From contig JBFWOJ010000018.1 of NCBI GenBank assembly GCA_050250575.1, positions 5,816 through 69,815 of the forward strand: a stretch of 64,000 nucleotides of DNA. The letters run 5' to 3'. A program made the translations under genes and the position numbers. Position 1 is the stretch's first letter, and each line of letters opens with the position of its first letter. This document shows positions 37,396-52,366 of the stretch, one piece after another. The notes below the pieces were generated by a model. That model saw only the letters and a program-made list of their open reading frames with translations, was not told the DNA's origin and searched no databases. The DNA comes from Rhodospirillaceae bacterium. GTDB taxonomy: Bacteria; Pseudomonadota; Alphaproteobacteria; Rhodospirillales; Rhodospirillaceae.

Positions 37396-40300
37396 ATGTC
37401 GCGGCGTGCTTTCGTGGGCGGCGCTGGCGCGTCGGTAGTGCTGGGGCCTGAAGTTTTCGCCGCCGCGGCGCCGCCGGAGTTCGTCGATACCGGGACCGGT
37501 TTCAGACTCGAATATGACGGCCAAGGCTGGATCGTCGACCAGCGGCTGTTTGTTGGAAGCCCCAAAGCCCGCTTTAATAAGAAGAAACAGACGATGTCGC
37601 TGCGCAGCGCCACCTATCCGGGCACCTCGCTGCGTGCCGATTTCGATGCTGAACTCTTCGAGAGCGGCTCCGTCTGGATGATCAGGATTCTCTTTAAGAG
37701 CGCGCAGGCGCCGATCGAAGCACCGCTCTCCGAGTGGATGATCTCCGCGGTCCCACGGACGGGACTGGCGGCGAACATCAAGGAAATCCGCATCGGTCGG
37801 TCGGCCCTGCGAGTCCCGAAAACCGCGCCGCGGCCTGACTTCACGATACGTGGGGACTTCCGGGTGACGCTTCGCCAAGGGCAAGCGCTCGGTCCCGTGC
37901 GATTCGACACCGAAGGGCTGCTGGGTCTTCCGATCGCCGTCGAATCAGCCGCGTTCATGCCCTCTGCCGCGGACGATCCGCGCACTACGGTCACGCTCGA
38001 GGTTGCCGAGTGCGTTGGCTTGCGCGTCGGCGAGGTGGGCCGTGACGTGCGGATCACTGCCGACATGTGGGCGCCGTCGTTCAGGGTGCTCGCGAAGGGT
38101 AAGGGCTCTAAAGCTACTGCCAAGATTGATATTTGCGCCCCCGACGGCGTGATCGCCGTTCAGTCTCGCGGCGCGGGCCCGGCCGGCGCGCGCATCCAAT
38201 TGGAGAAGCCCCAGTTCACCGCTGACACCGATGCCTGCCGACGCGACGTGCAGATCGTCGGGGAGGTTGCGCGGCGCGCTTTCGGCTTAGAGACGTCCGG
38301 ATTCTCGGTGATGCTCCAGGGCAGTGGCGAGCGGGTCGACTATCGTTTCACCAACACACCGCTCGAGCGCATCACCTTCCGCTTGCCTTTGATCGGGGCG
38401 AGCGTGCCGATGTCCGACGCCGTCACCGCCGTCACCGCCGACATCATGTACCCGCCGACCAGCTGCGATATCGTCGTGCGCGATGACTTCGTCGAGCCGC
38501 GGGTGCGAGACGATTGCGCAACGTCCATCTGGATCGGCGAGTCGAGTCAGCTCGATCTTCCGCTCGAATCGGGCGACGTCCGCGTGCGGCGCAGCCTCGA
38601 CCTGTTCGATCTGCGCTTCAATTTCCTTCACTACGCCCTTCGTGTCCGGGGCGGCGAGACTCGCATCCGTCAGCGTTGGTCGCACCCGGTCGGCTGCCCA
38701 GTGCAGAAAGTGGGAGATCATGCCGCGCCGCGGATCATCGTTCGCTTCCCGCCCCAGAGTATCCTCGAAGAGGCGTTCAAGCCGCCCAGCGATACAGCAA
38801 CAACCACCAAGCCGGATCCGACAAACCATTGCTACGTGCCACATGAGCGGCATGAGGTCTCATCGGCGCTCGCAAAAACCCGCGTCGCCGGACCAACGCG
38901 GCTGGTGTTCGAAGACAAGTCGGCCGAAAGTGCATGGACCGACCGCCTCTTCACCGTCGATTTCCTCACCGAGTGGTCCGACCTTGCTTTCATTGTCAAC
39001 CGCCGTGCACTGAGCCGGAAGGCGACGCTCGAGGACCAACTCCGGCTGGTCGGGATCGACCCAAAGACCTCGCGCGAGGATGCGCGGGTGAAAATAATCC
39101 AGTCGATTGGCACGCCGGCGGCTGACGAATCCTCCATCGAGGCGGTTTACCGCATGCTGATGTCGCCCGACGCCCAGGCGAAGTGGAAAAGCCGGCGGCG
39201 CCTGGACCCGCAAAGCCCCGAAATTTGGCATACCGATCTCGCCAATCCCGACGAAACCGCGATGCGCGTCTTGTATGCGCGCGACATGGATCTCGGGTTT
39301 CTCACCGGCAATGGCGTATCGTCCCTGCCCTCACAACTGTGGGCCAGTTCCCTCAGCGCAGACGACCGCCGCCAGCTCGCGGCGCTCACATCATTCTATG
39401 GCTTGGCCGCGCTGCGCCGGCTGGTCCAAAACGCCAGCGCGGGCACCTGGGGCGATGATCCCAACGGCATGGTCTTCATGCCGCCGGGAAAGGACTTTTA
39501 CGAGTATCTGACGAAGCCGGATGGCACCGATGTGCCCCAGGAAGCGGTGATGATGCCGAAACCGTTTTCCCGCGCCCGCCTCAGCCTGTCGCGCTCAGCG
39601 ACCCTTGACGCCGCGTGGCATGGCGAGCCGGCGGCGGGTTACGACAACGGCCTCCGGCCTCCATTCTTCAAGCCCTCGTTCACGATCGAGCGTTATCTCC
39701 ATCGATTGCGGGAGGGCCGCGATGTCTTTGTCGAAGTCACCTACAAGGGCTTCCTCTTGCCGCTGGGTCATCGCGCCGCGCTGCTCAAGGTGACGCAACG
39801 CGAGATTCATCCGGCCGCGAACACGGACAAGACCGATCCCGTCGGCTACCTGATCCAGCACTACTACATCGTCTGCCGCAAACCGCTGAAGCATTACCCC
39901 GCCTACAATCAGCCGTTCCGCACACACGAGTTCTCGCCGAAGTCGATCGAGCTCTTGACCACGCAAACGCCCGATCTGGACGACCCGCGCTGGCCGGAAG
40001 GGGCGTTCGCGGATCCAAACCCAGCGGAATACAAGAAGGATGTGTGCCGCCCGCCTCCCGGTCCTGGTGGAGTGGTGGGCGTGTTCTGGCCCGTCCTGCT
40101 CCACGTCCCAGGTCACACGGGGACGGATCAGAAGGGCCGCGAGGTGATTTTCGAATACAAGGTCGATGGCGCCGATACCCCAGCGCGCTCGCCGCTGCTC
40201 TTTGTCGACAACGCCGCAGCGCACGACCCGGACGTCATGAAAATGGTCGTCCAGTATTATAACGACAAGATCATCACTTCGCCCGATTTCTCGCTTTTGC

Positions 40301-50629: not shown

Positions 50630-52366
50630 ATGCCGTTCGACATCAATCGATTCGTATTAAACGCGAAGCGCCAGCTGGAAGAGCTTCGTCAGCGCAAAAA
50701 CGGCGATCTAGAAGCGCATATGCATCTACAAGAGTCCGTCAAAGACGGGATTCGGATAATTCTTGAAGTAAAGGAGAGATCCGACGGCCCTGGCCTAAAG
50801 GACCGATTCCTGGCGCGACTCCGGCCGGACTTTCTACATGAAATCACGCCTCTTTTTAGGGGAGCTGCGGACGAGCCGTCAAGGACTCCGCACTTTGATC
50901 TCGCGAAGTTTTGGTTGCTCAGGATTTTCGATGTTAGTTCGTTCGTGCCTGGGGGAAATCTCTTTGACTTGGCTCATGAGCTTCGACAGCAATTGGATCT
51001 GCATTCAGCCGAGCCCGATTTGCCTTATGAAGACAATGAAGCTGTCGAAATTGGTAGTCGCTCACGCGTATTGACCACAGCCATTGCAGACCGCGCATGG
51101 TCACTTAGGACCATGCGCGTTCCCGAGGCTTGGAAGTACTCCCTCCAAAATGCCGGTCTCACTCCTCAGGGAAGCGGGATTGTGATCGGACATCCTGACA
51201 CCGGTTATACGGTGCATGACGATCTCGATGCGGCGCGCTTGCTCATTTCGAAGGGCTACGACTTTATCGACAACAAGTGGGACCCTTTAGACCCGTTGAC
51301 CTATAAAGGGTCACCGGGGCACGGAACGGCGACGGGCAGTGTCATCATGAGTGGCGGCGGAGTGACGCCCGCTCCGATATCGGGGGGTGGGACGACCCCG
51401 CCCGGAGAAGTGACGGGTGTCGCTCCTCAAGCAGGATTGATCCCGATAAGGACCGCGAAATTCGTCGCGTGGATATTTTCGAGCCATATTGCTCAGGCCA
51501 TACACTTCGCCCGCCAGTGTAATTGCCACGTCATCTCGATCAGTATGGGTGGTACGCCCCTGCGAGCCTTGCATGCCGCAATTTACGACGCCGTCGCCGA
51601 TGGCATCGTTGTTGTCGCAGCTGCAGGAAATGAGGTTCGTACGGTTGTATATCCCGCCAGATACCCGGAATGCATCGCTTTAGCTGCGACCAACTATAAG
51701 GACATTCCGTGGCGGAGATCTTCGAGAGGCAAAGCAATTGATGTGTCGGCGCCCGGCGAACAGGTCTGGCGTGCAATCAAAAGGCGGCCTACGGACAGCA
51801 ACACAGGAGTCGGACCAAGCAATGGTACGTCATATGCGGCGGCAAACGCCGCCGGGGTAGCTGCACTATGGTTATCGCATCACGGTGCCGACGGTTTGCG
51901 GCGCGCTGCCGGCTCGAGCCTCCAAGAAACATTTCGGATGGCGCTGCGGACATCTGCGCGCGTGCCACCTGCATGGAACGCGTCGAAGTTCGGTGCCGGA
52001 ATTATTGATGCGCATGCGCTGCTTGCACTTCCAGTACCTCCAACAGGTATTACGTCTCCATTCACTTCCGATCTGGACGAGACAGCTAGTCTTCTAGAGC
52101 CGCTTGACGAAGAGGTTGCAAAGGCAATGCTTGCGCAGTCCATCGGAGTGCCGCGAATTCAACTTGAACAGACTCTCGGTCCTTGGCTCGGCGAAATAGC
52201 CCACATCTTCTTTACGCTGAACGTTGAAGAGGATCCGTCGTTTCAGATGTTGACCACGCATTCTCTGTCCACCGTCGATATTGGGGCAAGCCAATTGCGG
52301 GCGTTGCTTGAAAGACACGGTTCGGAATCTCTTTTAGGATGGCTAGTGGCCAGGAAAAAGCCGTAG
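50630..52366 (+). CDS. S8 (subtilisin-family) serine peptidase, no signal peptide
   Basis: The catalytic residues are Asp in VIGHPDTG (D190), His in GHGTATG (H231), Asn in AAAGNE (N333) and Ser in NGTSYAAANAAG (S401). A ~160-aa N-terminal region contains LFDLAHEL...AEPDLPYE. Confidence 0.9.
   Translation: MPFDINRFVLNAKRQLEELRQRKNGDLEAHMHLQESVKDGIRIILEVKERSDGPGLKDRFLARLRPDFLHEITPLFRGAADEPSRTPHFDLAKFWLLRIFDVSSFVPGGNLFDLAHELRQQLDLHSAEPDLPYEDNEAVEIGSRSRVLTTAIADRAWSLRTMRVPEAWKYSLQNAGLTPQGSGIVIGHPDTGYTVHDDLDAARLLISKGYDFIDNKWDPLDPLTYKGSPGHGTATGSVIMSGGGVTPAPISGGGTTPPGEVTGVAPQAGLIPIRTAKFVAWIFSSHIAQAIHFARQCNCHVISISMGGTPLRALHAAIYDAVADGIVVVAAAGNEVRTVVYPARYPECIALAATNYKDIPWRRSSRGKAIDVSAPGEQVWRAIKRRPTDSNTGVGPSNGTSYAAANAAGVAALWLSHHGADGLRRAAGSSLQETFRMALRTSARVPPAWNASKFGAGIIDAHALLALPVPPTGITSPFTSDLDETASLLEPLDEEVAKAMLAQSIGVPRIQLEQTLGPWLGEIAHIFFTLNVEEDPSFQMLTTHSLSTVDIGASQLRALLERHGSESLLGWLVARKKP

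Follow-up and report, generated by a model that had tools for sequence, protein, structure and literature searches.

The window analysed here, a stretch of 64,000 nucleotides (nt) from a Rhodospirillaceae bacterium (contig JBFWOJ010000018.1, positions 5,816 to 69,815), contains an integrative island at a tRNA-Phe gene, and the real cargo of this island is a mobile module consisting of two adjacent genes for giant proteins, G1 and G2. It is accompanied by a small hydrolase that differs between genomes and is here encoded by a third gene, G3. A fourth gene, G4, encodes an S8 subtilase and is probably a separately acquired passenger that stands outside the machine. Our tentative reading, to which we assign a probability of about 40%, is that the module specifies an exported giant complex with a partner hydrolase, and that the giant scaffold carries this hydrolase, or positions it, as a payload directed against another cell. 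The original prediction, made from the window itself, had regarded G1 to G4 as a single operon and as a possible conflict system in which the protease would mature or activate the giant proteins.

The four open reading frames (ORFs) all lie on the forward strand. G1 (37396-44814) encodes a protein of 2472 amino acids (aa), or 2496 aa if translation starts at ATG 37324; G2 (44816-49759) encodes 1647 aa, G3 (49781-50569) 262 aa and G4 (50630-52366) 578 aa. The stop codon of G1 (TGA, 44812-44814) is separated by one nucleotide from the ATG of G2 at 44816 (TGAcATG, 44812-44818), and G2 is translationally coupled to G1. The stop codon of G2 (TAA, 49757-49759) is followed by AGGAGAG (49770-49776) and the ATG of G3 at 49781, and that of G3 (TGA, 50567-50569) by a gap of 60 nt and the ATG of G4 at 50630. 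The number of same-strand genes, the coordinates of the junctions and the gaps are exactly those that had been predicted. The G+C content at third codon positions (GC3) is 0.75 in G1, 0.72 in G2, 0.69 in G3 and 0.56 in G4.

The evidence for a two-gene unit comes from 54 related loci, which were compared with the window by clustering the proteins of crudely called ORFs. G1 occurs in 54 of these loci and G2 in 48, and every other cluster is found in five or fewer. Two apparent exceptions (loci L016 and L023) contain G2 when searched in six frames, and the other loci without G2 are either truncated contigs or a fragmented pseudogene (L048). G2 directly follows G1 on the same strand in about 50 of the roughly 50 related loci that have downstream sequence, mostly with gaps of -16 to +17 nt. 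As judged from these sequences, the conserved unit is two genes, G1 and G2, and not four. The co-occurrence implied for all four genes in the original prediction thus holds for the giant pair, and a peptidase-type partner is recurrent, but in no other locus does an S8 gene stand on the same strand as the pair. Decay of the module is also seen: in L004 (17400-22082) G2 is split into two ORFs of 472 and 1066 aa, and in L048 (1661-6234), from an Actinomycetes metagenome-assembled genome (MAG), G1 is retained as fragments only.

The giant pair belongs to a family that is much larger than a routine search would suggest. A word-indexed homology search returned only ten relatives of G1 and one of G2, an artefact of its limited sensitivity; scanning one genome per species for a pattern added 43 further loci, and a complete HMMER search with the profile of G2 retrieved 4,670 clusters at 50% identity, of which 3,912 match at E<=1e-10 and 2,564 at E<=1e-30. 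The best 150 of these matches extend, in the majority of cases, over the greater part of the profile, and some are partial or split. G1 is identical to a hypothetical protein of a Rhodospirillaceae MAG, and the exact G2 sequence is likewise on record. Neither protein matches any entry in Pfam, NCBIfam, PADLOC or PHROGs, and comparison with the sequences in the PDB, by phmmer and by profiles, produced low-complexity helical matches only, so the earlier statement that no known domain can be assigned to the giants stands. Searches of the literature on giant bacterial proteins, Tat (twin-arginine translocation) and peptidases also yielded no account of the family. On sequence grounds G1 and G2 are true orphans, yet not rare ones, and represent a large uncharacterised family.

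Carriers of the pair are found in the Alphaproteobacteria (Bradyrhizobium, Mesorhizobium, Azospirillum, Ruegeria, Roseobacter, Sphingomonas, Rhodopseudomonas and Lichenibacterium), the Betaproteobacteria (Variovorax, Janthinobacterium and Pseudorhodoferax) and the Gammaproteobacteria (Pseudomonas and Dokdonella) and, outside the Proteobacteria, in Chloroflexota and Actinomycetota (Actinomycetes). The module resides on 12 plasmids, including those of S. meliloti, A. vitis, R. ruizarguesonis and Ruegeria and one Bacillus plasmid; in 11 of 49 loci, the flanking sequence retrieved around the pair (up to 10 kb) contains tRNA genes. In phages, by comparison, no tblastn match for G1 was obtained in 50,697 phage records and no PHROG match for G1, G2 or G3. 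One related locus, L003, has the same type of integrase at a tRNA-Phe gene, but its cargo is oriented the other way. The pair therefore behaves as a unit of mobile cargo, associated with tRNA genes, integrases and plasmids. The occurrence of the giants as mobile cargo at tRNA genes, as had been proposed, is borne out and extends to integrases and plasmids.

The island in the window has the typical parts of a tRNA-inserted integrative element, namely a tRNA gene, an adjoining tyrosine integrase and, at the opposite boundary, a second copy of the 3' end of the tRNA. The integration target is a tRNA-Phe(GAA) gene (35509-35584, forward strand), the sole tRNA found by ARAGORN. The 17-nt direct repeat CGGCCCTGGGCACCATT, which comprises the last 15 nt of the tRNA-Phe gene and two more bases, forms attL at the tRNA 3' end (35570-35586) and recurs as an exact copy, attR, at the end of the island (52903-52919), both on the forward strand; two matches were found in none of 100 shuffled sequences. 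The integrase (35698-37038, forward strand) is identified by the Pfam domains Arm-DNA-bind_3 (6.5e-28), Phage_int_M (8.3e-27) and Phage_integrase (3.5e-18), and clusters with the integrases of L003 and L018. The repeat therefore bounds an island of about 17.3 kb that holds the integrase and G1 to G4 only, which agrees with the earlier claim that there is no other cargo. Just beyond attR there is a transposase remnant (rve_3, 52981-53445, reverse strand), and G+C content is low (0.51-0.58) from 52981 to the end of the window at 64000, a region that spans genes for MarR, an MscS-type channel, otsA and otsB. Beyond attR there may be a second, older insertion at the tRNA-Phe site, or a variable region.

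G1 looks to be exported by means of a twin-arginine signal, a feature that was overlooked in the original prediction. Its N-terminus in the window reads MSRRAFVGGAGASVVLG, and the putative Tat signal peptide, MSRRAFVGGAGASVVLGPEVFAAAAPPE (37396-37479), is recognised by conservation of the motif: [S/T]RRxF[L/I/V] together with an uncharged h-region occurs in 46 of the 48 full-length G1 homologues. Three further regions can be distinguished, all on the forward strand. A core of about aa 400-1230 (38593-41085) is defined by alignment conservation, with AlphaFold2 (AF2) prediction of the homologous region being of low confidence, and contains many invariant residues, including the motif GADQPPFYP. 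It is followed, at about aa 1230-2040 (41086-43515), by an Ala-rich (20% Ala) helical spacer delimited by BLAST segment maps, composition and profile matches to the PDB; the spacer is variable in length, is missing from short forms of 1400-1800 aa, and as a profile matches only coiled coils or helical bundles of known structure. The conserved C-terminal region, at about aa 2040-2472 (43516-44811), is Gly-rich and is predicted to be a barrel- or meander-like domain of long antiparallel β-strands. This prediction comes from an AF2 model of a short homologue, P0010, computed from a shallow alignment of 11 sequences, in which the C-terminal domain has a predicted local distance difference test (pLDDT) score of 65-85 and about 18-20 long amphipathic antiparallel strands connected by tight turns. 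When the P0010 model was compared with the PDB using Foldseek, nearly all matches were outer-membrane β-barrels (porins, ushers, LptD, OmpM and SlpA). With low confidence, then, the C-terminal domain of G1 may be a membrane- or lipid-associating β-meander or barrel. Regarding the start of G1, a clear Shine-Dalgarno sequence is found at neither of the candidate codons, 37324 and 37396; starting at ATG 37324 would place a 26-aa n-region ahead of the twin arginines, which is nearer to the homologues, where the RR lies 20-70 aa from the start of the longest ORF.

G2, in turn, has neither a signal peptide nor a transmembrane segment. It conserves an N-terminal motif (VVPDG..LRLSL.L.P...WP) and, more strongly, a set of C-terminal motifs (WFSSGEGE, RWG.DP, PRFD...WYVD and PFVRLGLVRYQPHA). 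The AF2 model of aa 480-1647, based on 46 sequences, has a mean pLDDT of 77.2 and a predicted template modelling (TM) score of 0.65, and consists mostly of successive β-sandwich domains. The first Foldseek match of this model in the PDB is the Escherichia coli α2-macroglobulin (5a42) and the 14th is its Salmonella counterpart (4u48), with antibody Fabs in between; all scores are weak, that of the top match included (E 1.3e-3, probability 0.15, TM 0.06-0.08), and the viral library BFVD returns generic FN3/Ig arrays only. Furthermore, no A2M-family Pfam domain is detected at E<=1 in 39 G2 sequences, and the CxEQ thioester motif is found in none of them. Because of the weak structural match and the lack of both A2M domains and CxEQ, identity with α2-macroglobulins is not demonstrable; the model instead portrays G2 as a new array of Ig/FN3/MG-like domains, whose build is typical of extracytoplasmic proteins. 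In one homologue (P0013, locus L008) an IPT/TIG Ig-like domain is inserted in the C-terminal third (Pfam E 6e-5), which fits a modular, surface-type β-sandwich build.

A protein of 200-285 aa is very often encoded beside the pair, usually directly after G2 and sometimes just upstream of G1. Small hydrolases account for 18 of 140 flanking ORFs, counted as Pfam matches at E<=1e-3 on crudely called ORFs, and belong to the M10 (5), M23 (4), YkuD (4), Aspzincin_M35 (2), C70 (AvrRpt2-like, 2) and astacin (1) families. Further examples are a lysozyme-like gene in L002 and, beside the pair on the Bacillus plasmid, a C70 gene and an Rv2525c/GH25-like gene. Two more recurrent families in this slot, c3 and c4, are without assignment, and their profiles find nothing among PDB sequences; in c3, one Cys and one His are invariant. 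Most of the small proteins in the slot bear Sec, Tat or lipoprotein signals, and in many loci no recognisable hydrolase adjoins the pair.

In the window this variable slot is occupied by G3, a predicted Cys/His enzyme of the YkuD L,D-transpeptidase fold. Its score with Pfam YkuD (PF03734) is 23.3 bits, just under the cut-off of 23.4; it has the catalytic residues H202 and C219, the latter within the motif SAGC219IH, and its two homologues pass the cut-off with 28.9 and 35.2 bits. G3 and G4 both lack a signal peptide and an N-terminal hydrophobic segment. A homologue with 43% identity occupies the same slot after G2 in Lichenibacterium ramalinae (L017), and a comparison of G3 and G4 with all neighbours in the other loci by blastp and phmmer detected this G3 homologue and nothing else. 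Another homologue (39% identity, annotated as an L,D-transpeptidase and also free of a signal peptide) is found on the Bradyrhizobium japonicum plasmid p1S06B (L060, NZ_CP066352.1, 8504-25741), where it follows a different orphan giant pair of 2787 and 2704 aa that has no Tat motif and no hidden Markov model similarity to G1 or G2. The signal-less YkuD-like family thus seems to be linked with giant pairs of different kinds.

Two other kinds of small protein recur at these loci. Small secreted Cys-rich proteins with the motif CVNTATPTCG.Y..C....C.C, which have no Pfam match, adjoin the giant pair in several loci (L038 5201-5767; L012 21115-21738; L005 23765-24313; L007 8820-9314). A lipoprotein family of about 105 aa with the motif PPKIVAQS..A.G.C is encoded right after G2 in three loci (L002 21166-21477; L012 21787-22197; L014 20507-20824); it may represent an additional component or have an immunity-like role.

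The fourth gene of the island probably has a different history. G4 is a cytoplasmic-type subtilase that matches Pfam Peptidase_S8 (PF00082) with E 2e-30 and has a complete triad, D190 (DTG), H231 (HGT) and S401 (GTS); it is nearest to mycosin-type models, at 122 bits far under the equivalog cut-off of 279, and has a weak match (E 1e-8) to the PADLOC 'subtilase' model. The earlier description of the two small partners, a Cys/His YkuD-fold enzyme and a subtilase with a full triad, both free of signal peptides, was therefore correct. An S8 peptidase as a same-strand partner of the pair is, however, absent from the other approximately 50 loci, and the sole other S8 neighbour, in L007, is an unrelated, signal-bearing protein encoded on the opposite strand together with a trypsin-like gene. 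Relatives of G4 with 34-41% identity over aa 41-467 occur on 48 plasmids; in the two of these regions that were inspected (H16 and H14) the relative has 920-930 aa, the next gene encodes a trypsin-like peptidase, and the annotation shows no giant pair in the vicinity. Since the GC3 of G4 differs, S8 genes are absent from the other loci and its relatives reside in S8-trypsin modules, G4 is probably a passenger, and it may be a truncated member of the S8-trypsin module family. The absence of S8 elsewhere and the contexts of the G4 relatives leave the proposed maturation of the giants by this protease without comparative support; any maturing enzyme should therefore be sought in the occupant of the slot beside G2, here G3.

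The succession of an S8 gene and a trypsin-like peptidase gene, in some cases together with a large hypothetical protein, is a recurrent plasmid module, as on a Ruegeria pomeroyi megaplasmid (L057 6764-14841) and on S. meliloti pMl1 (L059 6926-12369), where it is close to patatin and nucleotidyltransferase genes. In L007 (11081-14337) a divergent S8 and trypsin-like pair is found beside G1-G2. These genes may constitute a separate, uncharacterised module.

The properties of the module can be combined into a mechanism as follows. The twin arginines in the N-terminal signal of G1 would direct this protein to the Tat translocase, and the signal-less G2 would most likely assemble with G1 and leave the cytoplasm alongside it, in the style of a Tat hitch-hiker. 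Outside the cytoplasm, the long-strand β-domain at the C-terminus of G1 would associate with or insert into a membrane, the Ala-rich helical segment would serve as a spacer of lineage-specific length, and the part that works or is exposed would consist of the core of G1 and the β-sandwich array of G2. The enzymatic partner would be the small peptidase or peptidoglycan hydrolase encoded next to them. We favour a payload over a mere maturation protease for this enzyme, and the system as a whole would then be an antagonistic or lytic device that acts on the envelope or surface proteins of another cell, because unrelated hydrolase families are exchanged at one fixed position, as is the pattern of effector cargo, because there are precedents among toxins, and because the distribution is that of the accessory genome. 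YkuD-fold enzymes, in particular, are known as delivered toxins, an example being Tlde1 (PMC9638812).

Several observations weigh against this reading. The Tat assignment rests on the conserved motif because the Pfam TAT_signal model scores sub-threshold, with 12-18 bits (cut-off 22.7) in three of ten N-termini and no match to the window copy. The model of G1 has a mean pLDDT of 49.8 and was built on a short homologue that is 25% identical, and its β-barrel matches are all weak (E 1e-3 to 3e-2, root mean square deviation >19 Å). A G1+G2 complex of about 450 kDa would, to our knowledge, far exceed any known Tat cargo; the signal of G1 could also be an uncleaved membrane anchor, with G2 staying in the cytoplasm, and no route for crossing the outer membrane is evident. 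No immunity gene was recognised, and the partners are nearly all peptidases rather than a broad toxin repertoire such as nucleases and lipases, which fits processing about equally well. Finally, G3 in the window has no signal peptide, unlike most of the other slot proteins with inspected N-termini. We consider it possible, but less likely than not, that the module is a previously unrecognised and widespread class of machine in the full sense, that is, a Tat-exported complex of >400 kDa with G2 as a hitch-hiker, in which a β-barrel-like anchor, a helical spacer and an Ig-like array aim an interchangeable hydrolase at other cells.

The anatomy and the export evidence are shared by the main alternative, possible though doubtful, in which the giants build an envelope or surface structure, such as an adhesin, fibre or tether with a head, a helical stalk and a β-anchor, and the hydrolase cleaves, releases, activates or covalently anchors them or opens the peptidoglycan for their assembly. 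The logic is familiar, as LapG cuts the giant adhesin LapA and L,D-transpeptidases link proteins to peptidoglycan, and the attachment of proteins to peptidoglycan by YkuD enzymes in proteobacteria is in its favour. So are the lack of an immunity gene, the near restriction of the slot to peptidases and peptidoglycan enzymes, and the independent export of most of these enzymes to the presumed compartment of G1. On the other hand, exchange between six unrelated catalytic families is rare for a dedicated maturation enzyme, in many loci no hydrolase can be recognised beside the pair, G3 and its two homologues have no signal peptides, and a patchy spread over plasmids and islands would suit competition or virulence factors better than envelope architecture. 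It is very unlikely that G2, together with G1, is instead a protease trap of the α2-macroglobulin type, a periplasmic cage of multiple β-sandwiches that would protect the envelope by trapping or regulating proteases, the neighbouring one among them. The ranks of 5a42 and 4u48 among the structural matches, the size of G2, which at 1647 aa equals that of the E. coli α2-macroglobulin ECAM, and the peptidase neighbours would suit such a trap; the weakness of the match and the missing A2M domains and CxEQ motif would not, and in addition G2 has no lipoprotein signal and its modelled part has no helical toroid of the size of a thioester domain. The least probable of the alternatives is that G1 to G4 form one cytoplasmic conflict system, directed against phages or other bacteria, with the S8 subtilase maturing or activating the giants. 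The four genes do share a strand, tight spacing and an island with no other cargo, G3 and G4 have no signal peptides, and G4 has its weak PADLOC match. Against this stand the S8 gene missing from other loci or, in L007, unrelated and oppositely oriented, the composition of G4, which is unlike that of the giants, and the trypsin-like genes that follow its relatives in H16 and H14 in place of a giant pair. The same is true of the Tat signal on G1, the β-sandwiches of G2 and the signal-bearing slot proteins, of the lack of PADLOC matches for G1, G2 and G3, and of a module that is absent from phage genomes and in which no nucleic-acid or NTPase domain was found; a cytoplasmic defence role, as the original prediction had entertained, is therefore unlikely.

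Several well characterised systems resemble the giant pair in part. In the order of an N-terminal signal, a globular part, a variable α-helical stalk and a C-terminal β-barrel-like domain, G1 is similar to trimeric autotransporter adhesins and to the OmpM/SlpA tethers, and SlpA and OmpM1 are among its weak Foldseek matches. No sequence or Pfam relation between these proteins and G1 was found, however, and they use Sec, whereas the signal of G1 is of the Tat type, and export in a folded state is hard to square with the threading of a barrel. The stalk of G1 differs from those of trimeric autotransporters in being Ala-rich; moreover, unlike any of these proteins, the giant-pair family has an obligatory second giant subunit, G2, and is found also in Chloroflexota, Actinomycetota and on a Bacillus plasmid. 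A classical autotransporter can be rejected, as G1 has no PF03797 or PF03895 match and the β-barrel similarity of its C-terminal domain is weak and generic. Tc toxins, in which TcA (about 2500 aa) and TcB (about 1500 aa) are near G1 and G2 in size, are likewise encoded by adjacent genes in mobile loci and have a payload of about 25-30 kDa that varies between loci. The Tc payload, though, is a C-terminal fusion enclosed in a cocoon, and the slot hydrolase is encoded separately and in most cases bears a signal peptide; G1 also has a Tat signal, unlike the Tc proteins, and no VRP1, TcA_TcB_BD, SpvB or RHS domain is found in G1 or G2 with Pfam and NCBIfam, so the pair is not a Tc toxin.

Bacterial α2-macroglobulins (ECAM/YfhM with PbpC, and the Mag operon) are periplasmic and, like G2, large multi-β-sandwich proteins of about 1650 aa in a genomic context of proteases or cell-wall enzymes. 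G2 differs from ECAM in lacking A2M Pfam domains, the thioester motif and a lipobox, and in its weak structural score; a thioester-type α2-macroglobulin is excluded by the 39 sequences without CxEQ. The LapA-LapG system similarly combines a giant exported protein with a nearby small exported cysteine or metallo-peptidase, but RTX and type I secretion elements, a LapG (C93) homologue and a LapD-type regulator are all missing from the giant-pair loci, and the family of the protease varies among them. Tat hitch-hikers such as the small and large hydrogenase subunits and DmsAB share with G1-G2 the presence of a signal on one of two co-translated partners. The known hitch-hiker complexes are cofactor-containing redox enzymes of at most about 150 kDa; G1-G2 would be about 450 kDa and has no cofactor motif. 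G3, finally, is by description similar to the type VI secretion effector Tlde1 (PMC9638812), in being a small signal-less YkuD-fold Cys/His enzyme beside a large delivery-type locus. By contrast, neither type VI secretion genes nor a Tldi-like immunity gene were seen in the island, and G3 has an additional N-terminal region of about 150 aa. A phage structural module was also considered and rejected, as there is no PHROG match and no homologue in phage genomes and the FN3/Ig matches in BFVD are generic, and so was a named defence system, with G1, G2 and G3 free of PADLOC matches and G4 showing only the weak 'subtilase' hit at E 1e-8.

This pair is present in thousands of diverse bacteria, yet neither giant has a domain, a name or a paper. 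Nothing in curated libraries, solved structures or the searchable literature describes the family, and no known system combines its features; for these reasons we count the giant-pair family as new in kind. The combination of G1 and G2 provides a clean two-gene definition by which the family can be annotated. Alphaproteobacteria associated with plants, algae and lichens (such as Bradyrhizobium, Sinorhizobium, Mesorhizobium, Agrobacterium vitis, Ruegeria and Lichenibacterium) are among its carriers, and in these it is often located on accessory plasmids. A conserved twin-arginine signal on proteins of 250-350 kDa that have a signal-less partner of 150-200 kDa tests current ideas on the size limit of Tat transport, and a possible new weapon or surface machine is suggested by the constant position at which peptidases and cell-wall hydrolases replace one another. 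If the module is indeed a Tat-exported complex of >400 kDa that aims such a hydrolase at other cells, it would be a new protein-delivery or antagonism system, with by far the largest known Tat cargo.

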